Shown piece after piece: positions 16,832 to 36,582 of a stretch of DNA of 38,254 bases. The position numbers and the translations under genes were made by a program. The stretch's first letter is position 1; each line of letters starts with the position of its first letter. Source of the stretch: a virus (taxonomy: Duplodnaviria; Caudoviricetes); the IMG/VR virus record IMGVR_UViG_3300001749_000063, positions 1 to 38,254 of that record. One strand, 5' to 3'. The notes beneath the pieces were generated by a model, which saw nothing but the letters and a program-made list of their open reading frames with translations, made no database searches and had not been told where the DNA came from.

Positions 16832-17310
16832 GATTGCCCCTTAATATCTACGTCTACATCTTCGGCCACACTAATTGGCGCTAGCGATACGTAATAACGC
16901 GCATCGTTAAATAAAACAGGGCCGTTTTCAGCGGGTATTAGCTCTATGTCGTCAATTAGTTGCACGTCAATTAACACGGTGGCGTTGTCTTTACTTACAA
17001 CATCTATGTCTATTTCGGGGTCGTCTAGGCCGTACTCGTCACGTGGCCATTGGCTGTCGATTAAAAAGGCGCCCACCATCGCAAGTAAGTTATAAGGGTT
17101 TACTTTGCGGTGCGGGAATTTTTCTATTGCGATTACGGCGGTGTGTTTCCATTTGGCAACTGCGTAGCCGTCTTGACCTTTGTCTTCGCCGCTCATTATT
17201 AAAGTGCCGCGTTCTTGCCAGGCGTCTATGTTGTTAGTGTGAATAGCCCCTTTTAAACTGGTGTTTAAAAAGTCGGTTAGTTGCTGCAATTGGGTAATAG
17301 TTTGGCTCAT
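16828..17310 (-). CDS. Tail completion protein (gpR-like)
   Basis: Synteny after gpL; acidic 160 aa. Confidence 0.7.
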   Translation of the reverse strand: MSQTITQLQQLTDFLNTSLKGAIHTNNIDAWQERGTLIMSGEDKGQDGYAVAKWKHTAVIAIEKFPHRKVNPYNLLAMVGAFLIDSQWPRDEYGLDDPEIDIDVVSKDNATVLIDVQLIDDIELIPAENGPVLFNDARYYVSLAPISVAEDVDVDIKGQS

Positions 17311-17756
17311 AGTGTATGCACTCCGCCGCGGCCAAGGCCAAGCAGTAAACGAATGCTGCGGTTAGACTGCGCTAATATCGCATCTTGCTGATCAACACTA
17401 TCGGCTTTGTTGTTGCCCGCTTCTTTTTGGTCAACCGCTGAAAAGTACCCCATTAAATCGCTATGCGAACGGGCATACACTGCTCCGCGGTAAACGCTTT
17501 GCTGTGCGGCGCTAAAGTTAGGCACGCCGTTTGTTTGGGTGAAAGCAACATCCATGTTGTCTTTCATAATGTATTTAAGTATTTGTTGTTGTACTTCTAA
17601 TGCGCTGCGGTTTAATGAGTCGGCTATTACGGTTTCTTCATAAAATTCTGGTATGCGGCGATGATCGCGAAACTCGCCAGTGCTTAGCGCTGGCCAGCCG
17701 CTTGCAGCATCTATTTCAATACTGTTTTGTGCTGTTGCTTCAAATCCAAATGACAT
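17307..17756 (-). CDS. Head completion/stabilisation protein (gpL-like)
   Basis: GWPALSTGEFR, YRGAVYARS, SIRLLLG; synteny. Confidence 0.8.
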   Translation of the reverse strand: MSFGFEATAQNSIEIDAASGWPALSTGEFRDHRRIPEFYEETVIADSLNRSALEVQQQILKYIMKDNMDVAFTQTNGVPNFSAAQQSVYRGAVYARSHSDLMGYFSAVDQKEAGNNKADSVDQQDAILAQSNRSIRLLLGLGRGGVHTL

Positions 17757-17865
17757 ACCACATACCTTGTTCAATTAGGTTCAGTGCAGTTAGCGTCGAC
17801 GCGGTTATTAACGGTCGCCCGTTAAACGCTCGGCTAGTGCACTGGAGGGTTGGGAGTAATGGCTA

Positions 17866-18606
17866 TTACTGGGCGTTTAACTCGGCAATGGCTCTTAATC
17901 TCATGGCTATTTTGTTTCGTACTGTTTTAACGCCTGCGTGTTTATGTAGCTCTGCGGCTTTGGCTAAGTAGCCATCGGCTTGTTGGAGCCTTTGCACGTC
18001 GCCGACATGCGATGGCGAAACATCGCCGTTTTTGCTACGCAGTAACGCAAGGCCCGCAAACTTGTAGTACTTAGCCGTAACTTGCTCAGGTAATTTCCAA
18101 TGGTTTGCAACCTTGCTGAACACTTGCCCAAAATACGGCTCAATGCTGTTGCCTTTTTCAGCTTGGGTATCTGCCCAATCAAAAACAGTGTCGGCAATAA
18201 AACCAGGCCACTGGCGACGTATGTTGTTAGCCATGGGCTGATTGAGTTCAATGGCTCTAAAGCCAAACTCAATGCCACGGCTGAGGTCGCCAATATCAAA
18301 TAACCACACAGTGCAATAAGCAAAAATAGGATTGTCTTCATTTTGTTTGCCCTTTTTATTCAAGTATTCATCAACTATTGGCAACCACTTTGGCAATAAC
18401 ACATCACGTTTGTGGGTTATTTTGTCGGCGCGGCTTACAAAGCTTTTTAACCGTTTTAAGTCGTCTTCTAATTCAATGAGCTGTAAGTGCAGGCTTGGGG
18501 CGTATTGCCCTGAACCTGTTAGGCTTACTTTTTCGAGCTTTTTTTTGGCTCGGTTTTGCTCTTTGAATTGGAGGATTCTTGCGCCGCCGACGGCTTTTTT
18601 AGCTCT
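17866..18606 (-). CDS. Terminase small subunit (gpM-like) reading frame; no canonical start upstream of 18402
   Basis: KRDVLLPKWLP, VWLFDIGD, LPEQVTAKYYK, AGVKT motifs; frame open from TGA at 18609-18607. Confidence 0.85.
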   Translation of the reverse strand, partial: RAKKAVGGARILQFKEQNRAKKKLEKVSLTGSGQYAPSLHLQLIELEDDLKRLKSFVSRADKITHKRDVLLPKWLPIVDEYLNKKGKQNEDNPIFAYCTVWLFDIGDLSRGIEFGFRAIELNQPMANNIRRQWPGFIADTVFDWADTQAEKGNSIEPYFGQVFSKVANHWKLPEQVTAKYYKFAGLALLRSKNGDVSPSHVGDVQRLQQADGYLAKAAELHKHAGVKTVRNKIAMRLRAIAELNAQ

Positions 18607-19007
18607 TCAACCGTATCTTTTAAGTCGCTATTTGCGGCGTTAATGTCGTCGGCTTGGTAAGCTAGGTCGGTGGCTGCATCGCTTGCTTTATCTGCGGCGC
18701 TTTCAATTTCATCTGCAGCGTTGCTTGCGCTGTCTATGCTGGTGTTAAGTTCGTCGGTTGTATCTTCAACGGGTGAAACATCAACCTGTTCTTTTTCGCT
18801 ATCAACATGCAGAGCTGGCAGATCATCTTCACAAAAAAACTTAATATTTTGGTCAACGTATTGTTGGGCGGTTTCAATGGCTTTTGATTCGTCGCAACCT
18901 AGCAGTGTTGCAAGTAACGCAAGCGCTGTTACTGGCTTTGCTTGCTGATCACCTTGCTTGGCTTTTGCAGCTAGGCGGCGTTTTTTAAAATTAGCAATGG
19001 CACTCAT
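18525..19007 (-). CDS. Acidic protein with basic N-terminus; probable N-terminal frameshift partner of gpM
   Basis: 160 aa, directly after capsid gene; overlaps the gpM frame by 82 nt containing slippery runs. Confidence 0.75.
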   Translation of the reverse strand: MSAIANFKKRRLAAKAKQGDQQAKPVTALALLATLLGCDESKAIETAQQYVDQNIKFFCEDDLPALHVDSEKEQVDVSPVEDTTDELNTSIDSASNAADEIESAADKASDAATDLAYQADDINAANSDLKDTVEELKKPSAAQESSNSKSKTEPKKSSKK

Positions 19008-19078: not shown

Positions 19079-20107
19079 TTAAGCGGCTGGTGCTGCGCCA
19101 ATGTTCATGGCTGCTTCGTCAACGGCGGCGTACACTTCAAACTCTTCAATTGCATAACCTTCGTTACGCCAGTATGAGTTTTCGTATTGCTTGCGGTCTT
19201 CTTCGTCTTTGGCTTTGCGGTGCGCGGTGCCTTTTTGCGTATAAATATGCAAATTGCTTAAAATGGTGACTGCAATGCGTTTACCTGGGAAGAACGGTGG
19301 CGTGTATGCGCGCATACCACCAATGTTTTTATCCATTTGCTGTGCGGCTACTTTTTCGCTTGGCTTGTCTGCTTGGTTCATCATTTTTGTTTGTGCTGTG
19401 GCTGTTAGGTCTGAGCCAACTAGCACAACTAGGCGCGGATCATTGCGTAATGATGGGTGAATAAACGTGTTTTTAAGCTCAGTAGCAATGGCGTCTAACG
19501 TTTTGTACTCACCATCTTTCAGCTCAGCGCTTGCATCAGGGTTAAAGTAAATTGGGTCTGTCATGATTTGATCAGGCGCTTTTTCTTTAACGATTTGATG
19601 CCAGCCTTTGTTTACGTCTTCACCATTTGGGTTAGCAACTGGGTCTGTTGTTGCGGCAGCTGATACACCATTAAAACCAACTCGCAGCATATCGAGTGCA
19701 AAACGTAGGGTTGCATTTTGGTTAATGAGCTTCATAAACTCATTTAAGTTACCGGCATTGGCCCATGTAGATAACAGTGCCCATGTGGTTGCTGAACATG
19801 AATCAGTTTCAACCAATTCATAAGTATTACCATCAACGCCTTGCTCTGATGTAAAACGGCCACCTGCTTTACGGCCTGTTGCAATGCCGTAATTGCCTAC
19901 TTTTACAACTTGGCCTTTAATTTGGTCTACTTGCATGGTGGTGATCATGCGTAAAAATTCGACCGACTCTAAAAGCGCCGCGCGCAGTTTTGTTTCCATT
20001 GGGTCTGAAATGGCAAATTTATGTGATGCGTCTTCTACACCAAATGATTTTGCTACTTGCACCGAGTATTTTTGTAAAAACCCAGTGGCTGTTTGATTTA
20101 AGTGCAT
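19079..20107 (-). CDS. Major capsid protein, P2 gpN family
   Basis: ALDMLRVGFNG, DVNKGW, PPFFP, RNEGY motifs. Confidence 0.95.
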   Translation of the reverse strand: MHLNQTATGFLQKYSVQVAKSFGVEDASHKFAISDPMETKLRAALLESVEFLRMITTMQVDQIKGQVVKVGNYGIATGRKAGGRFTSEQGVDGNTYELVETDSCSATTWALLSTWANAGNLNEFMKLINQNATLRFALDMLRVGFNGVSAAATTDPVANPNGEDVNKGWHQIVKEKAPDQIMTDPIYFNPDASAELKDGEYKTLDAIATELKNTFIHPSLRNDPRLVVLVGSDLTATAQTKMMNQADKPSEKVAAQQMDKNIGGMRAYTPPFFPGKRIAVTILSNLHIYTQKGTAHRKAKDEEDRKQYENSYWRNEGYAIEEFEVYAAVDEAAMNIGAAPAA

Positions 20108-29834: not shown

Positions 29835-30383
29835 TTATGCTAGTGCCTTGTAAATGGCTGATACATATTTGGCTTGATGAATAGCATCGTCTAATGCGTT
29901 GTGTGCCGTGCCTGCAAATGGCATATCACGCTTAGGATCAAAGCCTTTAAGTGTGCGGCCTAATTCGACAACGGTTCTAACATCTCGGTCATTCCAAAAC
30001 GCCCACGGCTTTTCCCAGCTTGCCGTTTTAAATGCGGTACCAATAATTACATTGTCGAAGCTTGAACCATTCCCCCAAACAACACGGCTCTTAAAGTCTT
30101 CTATTTGTGAGATCCACTTTGTAAAACCAGATAATGCATCAAGTAAATGACAGGCACTTTTACTCGTAATCTCAGCACGCGCTTCATCGCTTTGCTTTAA
30201 CCACCAAAGCACTGTGCTTGGGTCAATTTCTCCGAATTGTGCGGCGCTTTCTAGGTCAATTTTTCTATAAAAAGTATCGCCAATTTCACCTGTGGTTGGC
30301 TCAAAAAATACCGCACCAATAGCAACAATCGCAGCGTTATTACCCTGCCCCATAGTTTCTAAATCAAGCATTACGTGGTTCAT
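29835..30383 (-). CDS. DEDDh 3'-5' exonuclease (DUF5051-like)
   Basis: MLDLET, VWGNGSSFD, RDVRT, HNALDDA. Confidence 0.9.
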   Translation of the reverse strand: MNHVMLDLETMGQGNNAAIVAIGAVFFEPTTGEIGDTFYRKIDLESAAQFGEIDPSTVLWWLKQSDEARAEITSKSACHLLDALSGFTKWISQIEDFKSRVVWGNGSSFDNVIIGTAFKTASWEKPWAFWNDRDVRTVVELGRTLKGFDPKRDMPFAGTAHNALDDAIHQAKYVSAIYKALA

Positions 30384-30396
30384 AGCTTTCTCCTTT

Positions 30397-30681
30397 TTAT
30401 AGTTCAAGTTCAATTAGGTCAAAATCACAGCCGCGTTGTACTGCGTCGAGTGTTTCGCTTAGGCGGTCGTAAATTGGCGCGTATTCAATGTGGTCAACCG
30501 CAATTAATTGCACTACTGGCATAAGGTCAGTTAGGCAGTTTTCACACTCAATAAGCATGGAAACCGTTGGGCGCTTGGCTAAATTTTTAATAGTAAAGTT
30601 GGCTTGGTCGATAGCGTGTTCAACAATGCTTTTAAGTAATTGCTGGTTTTTAGAGTGATCTTGGTCTTTGATAGGGTTCAT
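30397..30681 (-). CDS. Hypothetical protein
   Basis: 94 aa in early operon; AAGGA SD. Confidence 0.65.
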   Translation of the reverse strand: MNPIKDQDHSKNQQLLKSIVEHAIDQANFTIKNLAKRPTVSMLIECENCLTDLMPVVQLIAVDHIEYAPIYDRLSETLDAVQRGCDFDLIELEL

Positions 30682-30714: not shown

Positions 30715-31305
30715 TTAAATTACAAAAAGCTCGGGCGCTAGCGAGTAGCCTTTGCAAAATACAAAGTGGGCGTATTCGGTTGAATCGGTTTTACTTGGCT
30801 TTTGCGGGTCAAAGCCTGGGCGTTTGCTATGCACATACACCGCCGCTAATGGCAGTTTTTGCCACATGGGTTTGCGCTTTTGGCTACCTAACCAATTAAG
30901 GCGTTGCAGCATAATGACCAAACCGCCCGCACGAACAATTTTTAATGCATGCTCTGTAAACGCTTGCGCTACGTTAAACGGTGGGTTTGTGATAATTACG
31001 TCGTGATAATTTGGCGTTGGATTCGTTTTCAAAAAATCACAACCTCTAATAAGAGCACGTGAGTCTTCGCGAATATCCCAGCTATCAACAATAGTAAAGC
31101 CGTGCTTTTCTAATACGGTTGGGTAGCTCATTGGATATTGCTCACACCCGCCCGCACTTGGGTCGAGTATTCTTGGGTATGCTTGTTCGTCAAAGTTAAA
31201 GCGGCAATTTTCGCTAAATGCTGCTAAAAAATCCTCAATTAGCCAATGCGGTGTTACGTAGTAATCATCTGCATTGCGCTGGGTTCCGCGATTAGTTGAG
31301 CTCAT
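30715..31305 (-). CDS. Orphan amino (N6A/N4C) DNA methyltransferase
   Basis: DYYVTP, ILDPSAGG (SAM binding), IITNPPF. Confidence 0.88.
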   Translation of the reverse strand: MSSTNRGTQRNADDYYVTPHWLIEDFLAAFSENCRFNFDEQAYPRILDPSAGGCEQYPMSYPTVLEKHGFTIVDSWDIREDSRALIRGCDFLKTNPTPNYHDVIITNPPFNVAQAFTEHALKIVRAGGLVIMLQRLNWLGSQKRKPMWQKLPLAAVYVHSKRPGFDPQKPSKTDSTEYAHFVFCKGYSLAPELFVI

Positions 31306-31314
31306 GATCAATCC

Positions 31315-34659: not shown

Positions 34660-35283
34660 TTAAATCCATTTCTTTAATTTTAGCAGTATTACTGCTGACT
34701 CTGAAAGTGGCTGGTTTGCCGTTAATTGCTGATCGCCACCTAAATAGAATTCATCAAGCTCGGCGGTCAATTCATTAGCATATGGCTTTAAGTCATCCAT
34801 TTTTTTAATGTTATTCATAATTTTTGGCGAAAGCGTTTTCTCTGTCCAGAAATGCGCTAGAACGTTGGCAGAAATAGCCAACCTTTGATCGCTTGTATAG
34901 CTAGCCCAATTTTTCCCATTCATTTCTCCATAGCTTAATTTAATATCATGGGCGTACCATTCTTTTTTACTTTTCTCTTTTTGCTCTACTGCTATTGGTT
35001 TTGTTGTTGACTCAGAGCCACTACCACCGCCAATTGCCGCGGCAATAATAATTAAAACTAACCCAAATATATTCGCTCCTTTTTGGGTTATTTCTGCATG
35101 AGTCACGCCCTTTTCTTCAGACGATTTTTTATTCGCTGCATTAATTTTATTTAAGATTGGTGGTATTAAACAACCAATAGCGAAAAAGCATATAATACCC
35201 GCTAGCACTTCACCATTATCAAAATGCATTCCTACACCAGCAATTGCTAGCACCCCTAGTATCCAACCAATTACTTTAACCAT
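34660..35283 (-). CDS. Accessory membrane protein (3 predicted TM plus soluble C-terminal domain)
   Basis: Hydrophobic segments near aa 3-19, 26-43 and 71-84. Confidence 0.75.
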   Translation of the reverse strand: MVKVIGWILGVLAIAGVGMHFDNGEVLAGIICFFAIGCLIPPILNKINAANKKSSEEKGVTHAEITQKGANIFGLVLIIIAAAIGGGSGSESTTKPIAVEQKEKSKKEWYAHDIKLSYGEMNGKNWASYTSDQRLAISANVLAHFWTEKTLSPKIMNNIKKMDDLKPYANELTAELDEFYLGGDQQLTANQPLSESAVILLKLKKWI

Positions 35284-35351
35284 GCCTTATCCTTATATTT
35301 TCCATAATGTTGCAAAGACACAGATTAAGTTTTCATTCAGGTTTTAACAAC

Positions 35352-35380
35352 CTGTGTATTTATACAGTCAATGCTATACT
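35352..35380 (+). promoter_or_regulatory. LexA box CTGTGTATTTATACAG (35352-35367) before extended -10 TGCTATACT
   Basis: Exact CTGT-N8-ACAG match. Confidence 0.8.
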
Positions 35381-35416
35381 GCGGTGAAGAAAATAGATTG
35401 ATTGGGCAGGTTAAGC

Positions 35417-35731
35417 GTGGGTAAACAACATAATTATTTAGCGGTGCATGCTGATCATGCCGCGCCTTTTTTAAATAAAATAACTAACGGGGCTATTTGC
35501 CCTGTGTGCAAAACAGGTGAGCTTAAATTTTTGGGTAATGAAAACGAGTTAATTGGTGTGCATGAGCTGCCGATTGATTGCTTTACTGCTAGCTATAAAA
35601 TCGACACCGCTAACGTGCCTGTTTTTACGCTTGTTTGCTCTGAGTGCTTTATTCACCAAACCGTAAACGCTAGGCTATTTTTAAATGTTTTGCATGATAA
35701 TGCTGATTTTAGGCACAAAAAAGCCCGCTAG
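35417..35731 (+). CDS. Zinc-ribbon protein (CPVC...CSEC)
   Basis: Two CxxC pairs; GTG start with AGGT SD (TTG at 35402 is an alternative). Confidence 0.7.
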   Translation: MGKQHNYLAVHADHAAPFLNKITNGAICPVCKTGELKFLGNENELIGVHELPIDCFTASYKIDTANVPVFTLVCSECFIHQTVNARLFLNVLHDNADFRHKKAR

Positions 35732-35744
35732 ATGCGGGCTTTTT
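35711..35744. terminator. Bidirectional terminator, copy 2
   Basis: AAAAAGCCCGC-TAGAT-GCGGGCTTTTT. Confidence 0.88.
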
Positions 35745-35758
35745 CTTCTATGCCTATA

Positions 35759-36283
35759 TTAGAGCTTAAGCTCTCTATTACCTACCTTTAAACCTCTATG
35801 TGCCACTTTTTCAATACCATCTTCAAATTGCTCGACTGACTCACCAACCGTTAACTTGTTTATTAAAATTCTAAACGAAGATACTAGAATAATAATAAGG
35901 GTACATAATAAGGTCGTTAATGGGGCACGCTTCAATATAATTGTCGCCCCCATATTAATTATGTTTTTACATTGTTTTCTCTGTGATTCTGACAGCTCTG
36001 GTAATGATTGCGGTATCGCAAGCTCTGTTCTTTTAGCCTTTTCCTTTTTACTAGATTTCTGAAATACAACGTAATAGGTAACAAATACCATTAGATACGC
36101 GTCAGTACAAATACTAAAAAACGAGTAAACCATTTTTTTGTGTTCTTCAGGCGCATCAGAAGCAAGAAAGCTTTCTAGCTCGTCTGCCATTTTCTCTCTT
36201 GTGTTTAATGCTGCGCCTCTTCTCCACAGATTATAGCCAAGCAACAAAACAAAAATAATTGGTATAAACACTAGTTCATTCAT
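35759..36283 (-). CDS. Accessory membrane protein
   Basis: 174 aa, 2-3 hydrophobic segments, AT-rich, TAATG-coupled to upstream gene. Confidence 0.75.
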   Translation of the reverse strand: MNELVFIPIIFVLLLGYNLWRRGAALNTREKMADELESFLASDAPEEHKKMVYSFFSICTDAYLMVFVTYYVVFQKSSKKEKAKRTELAIPQSLPELSESQRKQCKNIINMGATIILKRAPLTTLLCTLIIILVSSFRILINKLTVGESVEQFEDGIEKVAHRGLKVGNRELKL

Positions 36284-36582
36284 TATTTACTGCCTCCATT
36301 TGCTGGTTGAGATTTTCTTTGTTGTTTATCTCTTTTTGCCTGCATTCTAATTTCGTAAGCTTTGATTTTCATTTCTCTTAAGTGTTTACGTTCTTCAGAC
36401 TGCATTCGTTCTCTTTCAGTCAGTTGTTTACTTTTTTGTAAGTAAACCTTAACACTTAAAATCATTAAAAGAGCTATCAAGGGCGAGTACCATGGTAACT
36501 CTTGTACTTTGCTGAGTAACGTATCCAAAAAACCCAATTCGGTTTTAGTAATAGTTAAATCAGTAGCAGATTGAGATGGCAT
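36283..36582 (-). CDS. Accessory single-TM protein with basic coiled-coil tail
   Basis: WYSPLIALLMILSVKVYL followed by E/R/K/Q-rich helix. Confidence 0.7.
   Translation of the reverse strand: MPSQSATDLTITKTELGFLDTLLSKVQELPWYSPLIALLMILSVKVYLQKSKQLTERERMQSEERKHLREMKIKAYEIRMQAKRDKQQRKSQPANGGSK

Follow-up and report, generated by a model that had tools for sequence, protein, structure and literature searches.

The window analyzed here is the whole 38,254-nucleotide (nt) stretch of the IMG/VR virus record IMGVR_UViG_3300001749_000063 (Duplodnaviria; Caudoviricetes), and the element in question is its gene for gpM, the terminase small subunit, which lacks an ordinary start and is predicted, with good confidence, to be expressed by a programmed −1 ribosomal frameshift in the upstream open reading frame (ORF), hereafter ORF-A. 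The locus lies on the minus strand and begins with the gene directly upstream, that of the major capsid protein gpN (19079..20107; PF05125, E 1e-97; phrog_70). Between the capsid gene and gpM stands ORF-A (18525..19007), whose 0-frame product has 160 amino acids (aa) and an isoelectric point of 4.6. The gpM frame occupies 17866..18600 in the −1 frame relative to ORF-A and is assigned by PF05944 (E 2.4e-29; 102.4 bits against a gathering score of 29.4) and phrog_74 (E 6.6e-60); the gene directly downstream (17307..17774; PF05926, E 2.7e-13) encodes the head completion protein gpL. At the junction are found the slippery heptamer A_AAA_AAG (18594..18600), singled out as the predicted −1 shift site by its invariance across loci, and a dual-coding overlap (18525..18593) read as the polar tail of ORF-A in the 0 frame and as the linker and first helix of gpM in the −1 frame. 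This overlap includes a GG-N-GG motif with a conserved ATC codon (Ile, 18576-18574; 18574..18588 together), at which pairing with the anti-Shine-Dalgarno (anti-SD) sequence peaks, as well as a run of eight A (A8, 18539..18546) lying outside the conserved signal.

The gpM frame is open from 18606 to 17866, that is 246 codons from stop to stop, and its first ATG, GTG or TTG is a GTG at 18402, codon 69, within the conserved motif K-R-D-V-L-L-P. These 68 codons devoid of any start and the position of the GTG inside a conserved motif had been pointed out in the initial annotation; they were re-derived from the sequence, and all the coordinates given there are correct. Since the matches to PF05944 and phrog_74 start at residues 43 and 20 of gpM, respectively, conserved gpM sequence extends upstream of this GTG. 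The −1 frame opens two codons before the heptamer, whose register fits a −1 slip from ORF-A to gpM, as previously proposed, and the predicted ORF-A-gpM fusion would comprise 138 + 242 = 380 aa. Counted over 11,957 codon positions in long ORFs of the window, A_AAA_AAG occurs in register five times, and the site at 18600-18594 is the only one that opens a long −1 frame (244 codons vs 11-23). The observation of a start-less gpM frame with an in-register heptamer is therefore confirmed.

Related loci, 360 in total, were gathered, mostly via gpM or ORF-A protein patterns, 357 of them with a gpM match and 167 of them distinct; they were classed by their ORF-A score and not by the heptamer, and 61 loci from a motif scan were excluded from every count. 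The distinct set comprises 103 loci with ORF-A (window included), 62 complete loci without it and 2 loci cut by contig ends. All 103 ORF-A loci carry the heptamer in the gpM open frame, in register and contiguous with gpM (A_AAA_AAG in 101, A_AAA_AAA in 2), and the overlap and heptamer first noticed in the window are thus conserved in its relatives. No ATG is found upstream of the gpM core in 102 of these loci, the remaining one having an ATG inside the core motif, and gpM has an ordinary ATG start in 62/62 of the complete loci without ORF-A, one of them in an Aliivibrio prophage; in the 33 inspected, this single-ORF ATG is no more than about 65 nt away from the stop of the capsid gene. Canonical internal initiation was considered and rejected, the first ATG, GTG or TTG falling anywhere between codons 26 and 125 in 72 loci. 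The codon before the Lys-Lys pair is CTA in 51 loci, TTA in 31, ATA in 9, GTA in 8 and GCA in 4; whether it encodes Leu, Ile, Val or Ala, it ends with A in 103/103, as compared with a background of 27% for Leu, Ile and Val codons. The spacing between the heptamer and the conserved Ile codon is 7, 8, 9 or 28 codons and always a whole number of them.

The split layout is kept down to 57% gpM identity and is present in the phage records C5a and PY3; the named hosts of the loci include Pseudoalteromonas, Colwellia and Rheinheimera, and ORF-A homologues also come from Shewanella and Alkalimonas. A quick tree was built from 71 gpM proteins, and one of its branches (Shimodaira-Hasegawa-like approximate likelihood ratio test 99) separates the 40 of split type from the 31 single-ORF ones. 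One branch holding all the split gpM proteins fits a single origin of the split, and at the level of this tree the split form is shown to be one clade. In a sample of 401 genomes of the order, 29 have a gpM match and 3 of these are of the split type; no locus was found among the viral contigs of P0179. In one locus, L343, the capsid and gpM genes each appear broken by extra frame changes (L343:370-1412 and 1755-2578); those in gpM are absent from gpM of the close relatives L344 and L345, and the breaks are probably sequencing errors or decay.

Base changes were counted on a minimum spanning tree of 91 edges linking 92 indel-free loci, the 11 loci with another spacing or other motifs being excluded. 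The heptamer has undergone 2 changes over its 7 bases, as compared with about 7-12 per base in its flanks. Its wobble positions show 0, 0 and 2 changes, to be compared with a mean of 22 (minimum 9) for upstream wobbles, a mean of 16.6 (minimum 4) for those of gpM and 4-16 for those of conserved Lys codons. Of the 533 changes upstream of the heptamer, 227 leave the 0-frame protein unaltered and 39 the −1-frame protein. The balance is reversed in the linker between the heptamer and the Ile codon, with 16 of 126 changes silent in the 0 frame and 74 in the −1 frame, and the linker thereby resembles gpM proper (117 and 595 of 953, respectively). Furthermore, stops in the −1 frame occur within six codons upstream of the heptamer in 48/92 loci and within six codons downstream in 0/92. 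These comparisons of related sequences show that the heptamer is the point where coding selection changes frame, from 0 to −1, and that it is conserved beyond what the proteins would need.

Selection on the 0 frame does not end at the heptamer. The ORF-A tail measures 19-24 codons in 101/103 loci; in 33 representative loci it contains 0.8 hydrophobic residues on average vs 4.7 after shuffling of the codons of the −1 frame, and in 32/33 of them it is at least 19 codons long vs 57% expected. By these measures selection is shown to act on the 0-frame tail. Given its low hydrophobicity and kept length, the short ORF-A protein, Ser/Lys tail included, probably has a function, although one locus does without the tail: in the Pseudoalteromonas obscura prophage L005 (L005:2995-3010), ORF-A stops right after the heptamer and the −1 linker is kept.

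The ORF-A protein is built of a basic N-terminal helix, a small helical hairpin, an acidic heptad-repeat coiled coil, the Lys-Lys pair at the slip site and a polar tail of 22 aa. A monomer model of low confidence (predicted local distance difference test, pLDDT, 64) shows a first helix at residues 3-18, the small hairpin and a long helix at 82-137. The family forms about 40 clusters at 50% identity, and its complete members all end with x-K-K and a tail. The number of heptads varies, the shortest members being reduced to the first helix, heptads, Lys-Lys and tail. Searches of Pfam and PHROGs with 36 ORF-A proteins found no significant family, the matches being weak coiled-coil ones, and an Atlas search returned only ORF-A's own unnamed clusters.

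The initial annotation had noted that ORF-A begins like a gpM N-terminus, and a profile built from 55 ORF-A N-termini bears this out. Indeed, when this profile was run against 35 gpM products (every third of the 103), the helix that follows the slip was the best site in 33 of them; in the window, the same helix ranks second of 9,960 windows of the long ORFs, and the profile often gives a high rank to the gpM N-terminus of single-ORF loci. These profile matches suggest that ORF-A likely originated when the 5′ end of gpM was duplicated, the N-terminal helix of ORF-A (18954..19007, residues 3-18 in the model) being the likely copy of the gpM N-terminal helix. A short motif, G-V-D-L-A-S-G-x-D, which may resemble the terminase nuclease motif, is variably inserted in many ORF-A proteins (L004, L073, L077, L101) and also in frame at the gpM N-terminus of a distant single-ORF lineage (L191, L193-L196).

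As for gpM itself, a model starting from the heptamer is confident (pLDDT 90.6), with a helix at residues 4-28; the fold being confident from the heptamer on, a protein begun at the annotated GTG would lack two and a half helices. No PDB entry matched the model at E <= 0.001, the hits there being weak and TPR-like, and one viral terminase was matched. In the C5a and PY3 records, the gpM start is annotated about 70 codons late, inside the conserved domain, and ORF-A is listed as hypothetical.

The near-invariant heptamer, its constant register and the frame switch of coding selection all agree with the programmed −1 shift at 18600-18594 that had been put forward initially, and we strongly favor the reading in which gpM is made by this shift within ORF-A as a 380-aa fusion. 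Several observations nevertheless weigh against it, in addition to those on the Ile codon described below. The loci are related, so that their counts overstate independence, for which the spanning tree is an approximate correction only. A natural in-frame ORF-A-gpM fusion was not found among proteins of 400-2000 aa (the range of 280-400 aa was not covered), and none of 148 new hits had a gpM profile match. A conserved 3′ structure was not found either, whether by single-sequence folds or by RNAalifold on 34 sequences, which gave no consensus pairs. On the 5′ side, Shine-Dalgarno (SD)-like pairing reaches −10 kcal/mol in 6 of 38 loci, is near −1 in 13 and is −2.9 in the window.

Two elements proposed as part of the signal did not hold up. 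The hairpin GCCG-TCGG-CGGC adjacent to the heptamer overlaps its last base, is present in 41/103 loci and has no support from folding z-scores or a consensus structure. The z-scores downstream of the heptamer in the window are −0.06 to −1.5 and +0.5; across loci the downstream windows fold somewhat better than the gpM background on average (−11.2 vs −7.8 kcal/mol), without a common structure. The second A-run, the A8 at 18546-18539, is private to the window (1/103 loci), AAAAAAC being found there in 33 loci and no slippery motif in 69. Within the gpM frame this private run also creates, at 18544, an A_AAA_AAG in register (window 18546-18538, minus strand), from which the −1 frame closes after 23 codons; it could reduce the output of full-length gpM, in the window phage only. 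Upstream, the anti-SD pairing located about 10-14 nt before the heptamer has a mean peak of −4.0 kcal/mol over the 38 loci. The most basal split locus, L117, has GGAGG 13 nt upstream of the heptamer and, seen in this locus only, an 8-base-pair hairpin 4 nt downstream; from L117:2417 onward its linker is 20 codons longer than usual, with both frames open alongside this full SD-heptamer-hairpin cassette. Because no conserved stimulator was found, the predicted efficiency is low, and most members probably rely on the heptamer alone and would shift at a rate of a few percent. Scanned for promoters and terminators, the junction showed none on its coding strand.

A different route to gpM would be initiation at the conserved AUC (18576), which would yield a separate protein of 236 aa, with GG-N-GG-N-G serving as SD; the weak start would then keep terminase low, and the A-run would be an enhancer or incidental. 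The Ile codon eight codons past the heptamer is indeed ATC in 101/103 loci (ATT in 1, CTC in 1), an SD-like motif precedes it in 98/103, and the anti-SD pairing just upstream of the ATC, about −6 kcal/mol, is the strongest of the region. Moreover, its position matches by eye that of the initiator Met in single-ORF relatives, for instance L123, and since these start at the same place, the ATC may be a relic start. Initiation at the AUC, however, leaves the invariance of the heptamer wobbles unexplained, and the surroundings of the Ile codon also speak against it: the variable bases of the GG-N-GG motif are mostly C and not the A of GGAGG (27/33), the −1-frame codon after the motif always encodes Ala while its third base is free, and ATC is the sole Ile codon that keeps the 0-frame tail polar, the tail-less L005 having ATT. 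In addition, L010 has CTC in place of ATC, and five loci have no SD-like motif before the Ile codon, basal L117 among them. Initiation at the AUC as the sole source of gpM therefore seems unlikely to us, and both routes, slip and AUC initiation, could operate together.

Less probable by a wide measure is that the fusion results from transcriptional slippage adding an A, a process that would give the same product and to which the A7 of 2/103 loci and the private A8 of the window might lend themselves. Transcriptional slippage is associated with A-runs longer than 7 (PMC3711429), whereas in 101/103 loci the conserved run consists of six A and then a G, with the terminal G and the codon register kept by selection. 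An RNA-library contig of one relative spans the site without indel, a weak point as contigs drop minor variants; the RNA runs, being contigs of relatives with small shares, are uninformative on expression level or slippage. Finally, the homopolymer context raises the suspicion, already voiced in the initial annotation, of a sequencing error, or else of a lesion that has inactivated the gene in a defective prophage. The slip site is crossed without indel by contigs of three runs (DNA or untyped), one of which is possibly the window's own sample, and the layout is common to 102 other distinct loci; the split is for these reasons not a homopolymer error. The same layout in 103 distinct loci of one clade, to 57% gpM identity, purifying selection on both frames and the split shared by the C5a and PY3 records likewise speak against a lesion, and the chance that error or lesion explains the locus is negligible.

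Under the favored frameshift, ribosomes translating ORF-A would slip back one base at A_AAA_AAG into the gpM frame, presumably by tandem slippage of two tRNA-Lys as in dnaX, and the products would be the 160-aa ORF-A protein and the rarer 380-aa fusion. The analogy with lambda tentatively suggests that the locus works like a G/GT pair transferred to the head genes: short ORF-A proteins in large number, with a few fusions among them, would assemble together via the coiled coil present in both, and gpM would thus reach its partner in a constant proportion. This may set terminase dosage or dock terminase at the prohead, and such docking would parallel the assistance given by lambda gpFI. A still more doubtful extension is that, in this clade of marine P2-like phages, the small terminase has been rebuilt as a two-product system, in which an excess of duplicated-helix stalk would be a packaging adaptor or decoy and the rare fusion the only working gpM. 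That ORF-A acts as a decoy against proteins targeting the small terminase is speculative.

The window corresponds to a P2-like prophage or phage with a completeness rating of 100%, and its gene set includes an integrase, a gpA-type replication protein, the terminase large subunit, scaffold, capsid and gpL. The head operon order O-N-M-L with divergent P-Q is present, ORF-A being inserted between N and M. Its gpM is 97% identical to that of Pseudoalteromonas phage C5a (Peduoviridae, Catalunyavirus) and 96% to that of vB_Psp_PY3, from which we infer that Pseudoalteromonas is the likely host. Elsewhere in the window, several small ORFs lie at 34660-36582 between a repressor-like gene and the integrase, a position typical for accessory cargo, and two ORFs on the minus strand, at 30715-31311 and 29835-30413, look by eye like a DNA methyltransferase (NPPF motif) and a 3′-5′ exonuclease.

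The programmed frameshifts known in tailed phages mostly concern tail chaperones and extensions of capsid or tail proteins. The window has a separate G/GT-type gene at 13196-12742, and the ORF-A/gpM locus does not stand before the tape-measure gene. At 12939-12933 (minus strand), an in-register A_AAA_AAA followed by a stop ends an 88-aa gene preceding a tape-measure-like ORF, and the −1 frame is open there for 65 codons to 12742. This second site is likely a tail chaperone frameshift of the G/GT type, and the phage would therefore use two −1 shifts. Frameshifting for a small terminase subunit was not found described in our literature search, which did not extend to subscription papers and some supplements and in which several sources were available in part. 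No such description occurs in the available parts of PMC10885494 and PMC10612066, nor the word "frameshift" in that of PMC13100340, a survey of P2-like viruses; PMC3711429 has no "terminase" in its text and no match in two supplement files. Within the same coverage, the sole terminase recoding found was that of the Streptomyces phage Hau3, a UUA-triggered bypassing of 10-nt inserts within one gene, as described in PMC5009743 and PMC10732093. Hau3 thus also recodes a terminase, but by bypassing in one gene and not by a −1 slip joining two ORFs, and it belongs to an unrelated phage group. The −1 mechanism is known, its use for this gene class was not found described in the same search, and the partner protein is new.

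If true, a conserved frameshift supplying an essential packaging subunit would extend such recoding to a new class of genes, and this in the P2 family, which is well studied. It would also correct the annotation of gpM starts in the C5a and PY3 records and bring in a new head-module protein, ORF-A, whose ratio to terminase is apparently fixed by recoding. Loci that naturally lack the tail, have full stimulators or have a longer linker already supply controls.

Comparison with established systems places the locus more precisely. Lambda gpFI is acidic and its gene comes right after the capsid gene; we know of no case in which gpFI is fused to terminase. It is an accessory protein that helps terminase-DNA meet the prohead (PMC4856287), and its resemblance to ORF-A is an analogy only, the 36 ORF-A proteins showing no family match in Pfam or PHROGs. 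In lambda gpG/gpGT, a low-level −1 shift gives an abundant short and a rare long product at a set ratio (PMC5009743); the predicted pair of short and long products from a −1 shift in a morphogenesis operon is alike, but here it lies in the head module and not in the tail module, its −1 part is a terminase subunit, and no sequence likeness was found. A_AAA_AAG is described as highly shift-prone in Escherichia coli and as the dnaX site (same source), and the E. coli dnaX cassette has the identical heptamer and register. Its stimulators, a 5′ SD and a 3′ hairpin, are not conserved across the clade, L117 having elements like both, and the dnaX shift leads to a shorter product (PMC3711429) whereas the shift predicted here leads to a longer one. 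A further counterpart is P2-family gpM itself (PF05944, phrog_74), which belongs to the same family above cutoff and occupies the same place between the capsid and gpL genes; it has its own ATG directly after the capsid gene, whereas gpM of the window has no ATG and is preceded by ORF-A.
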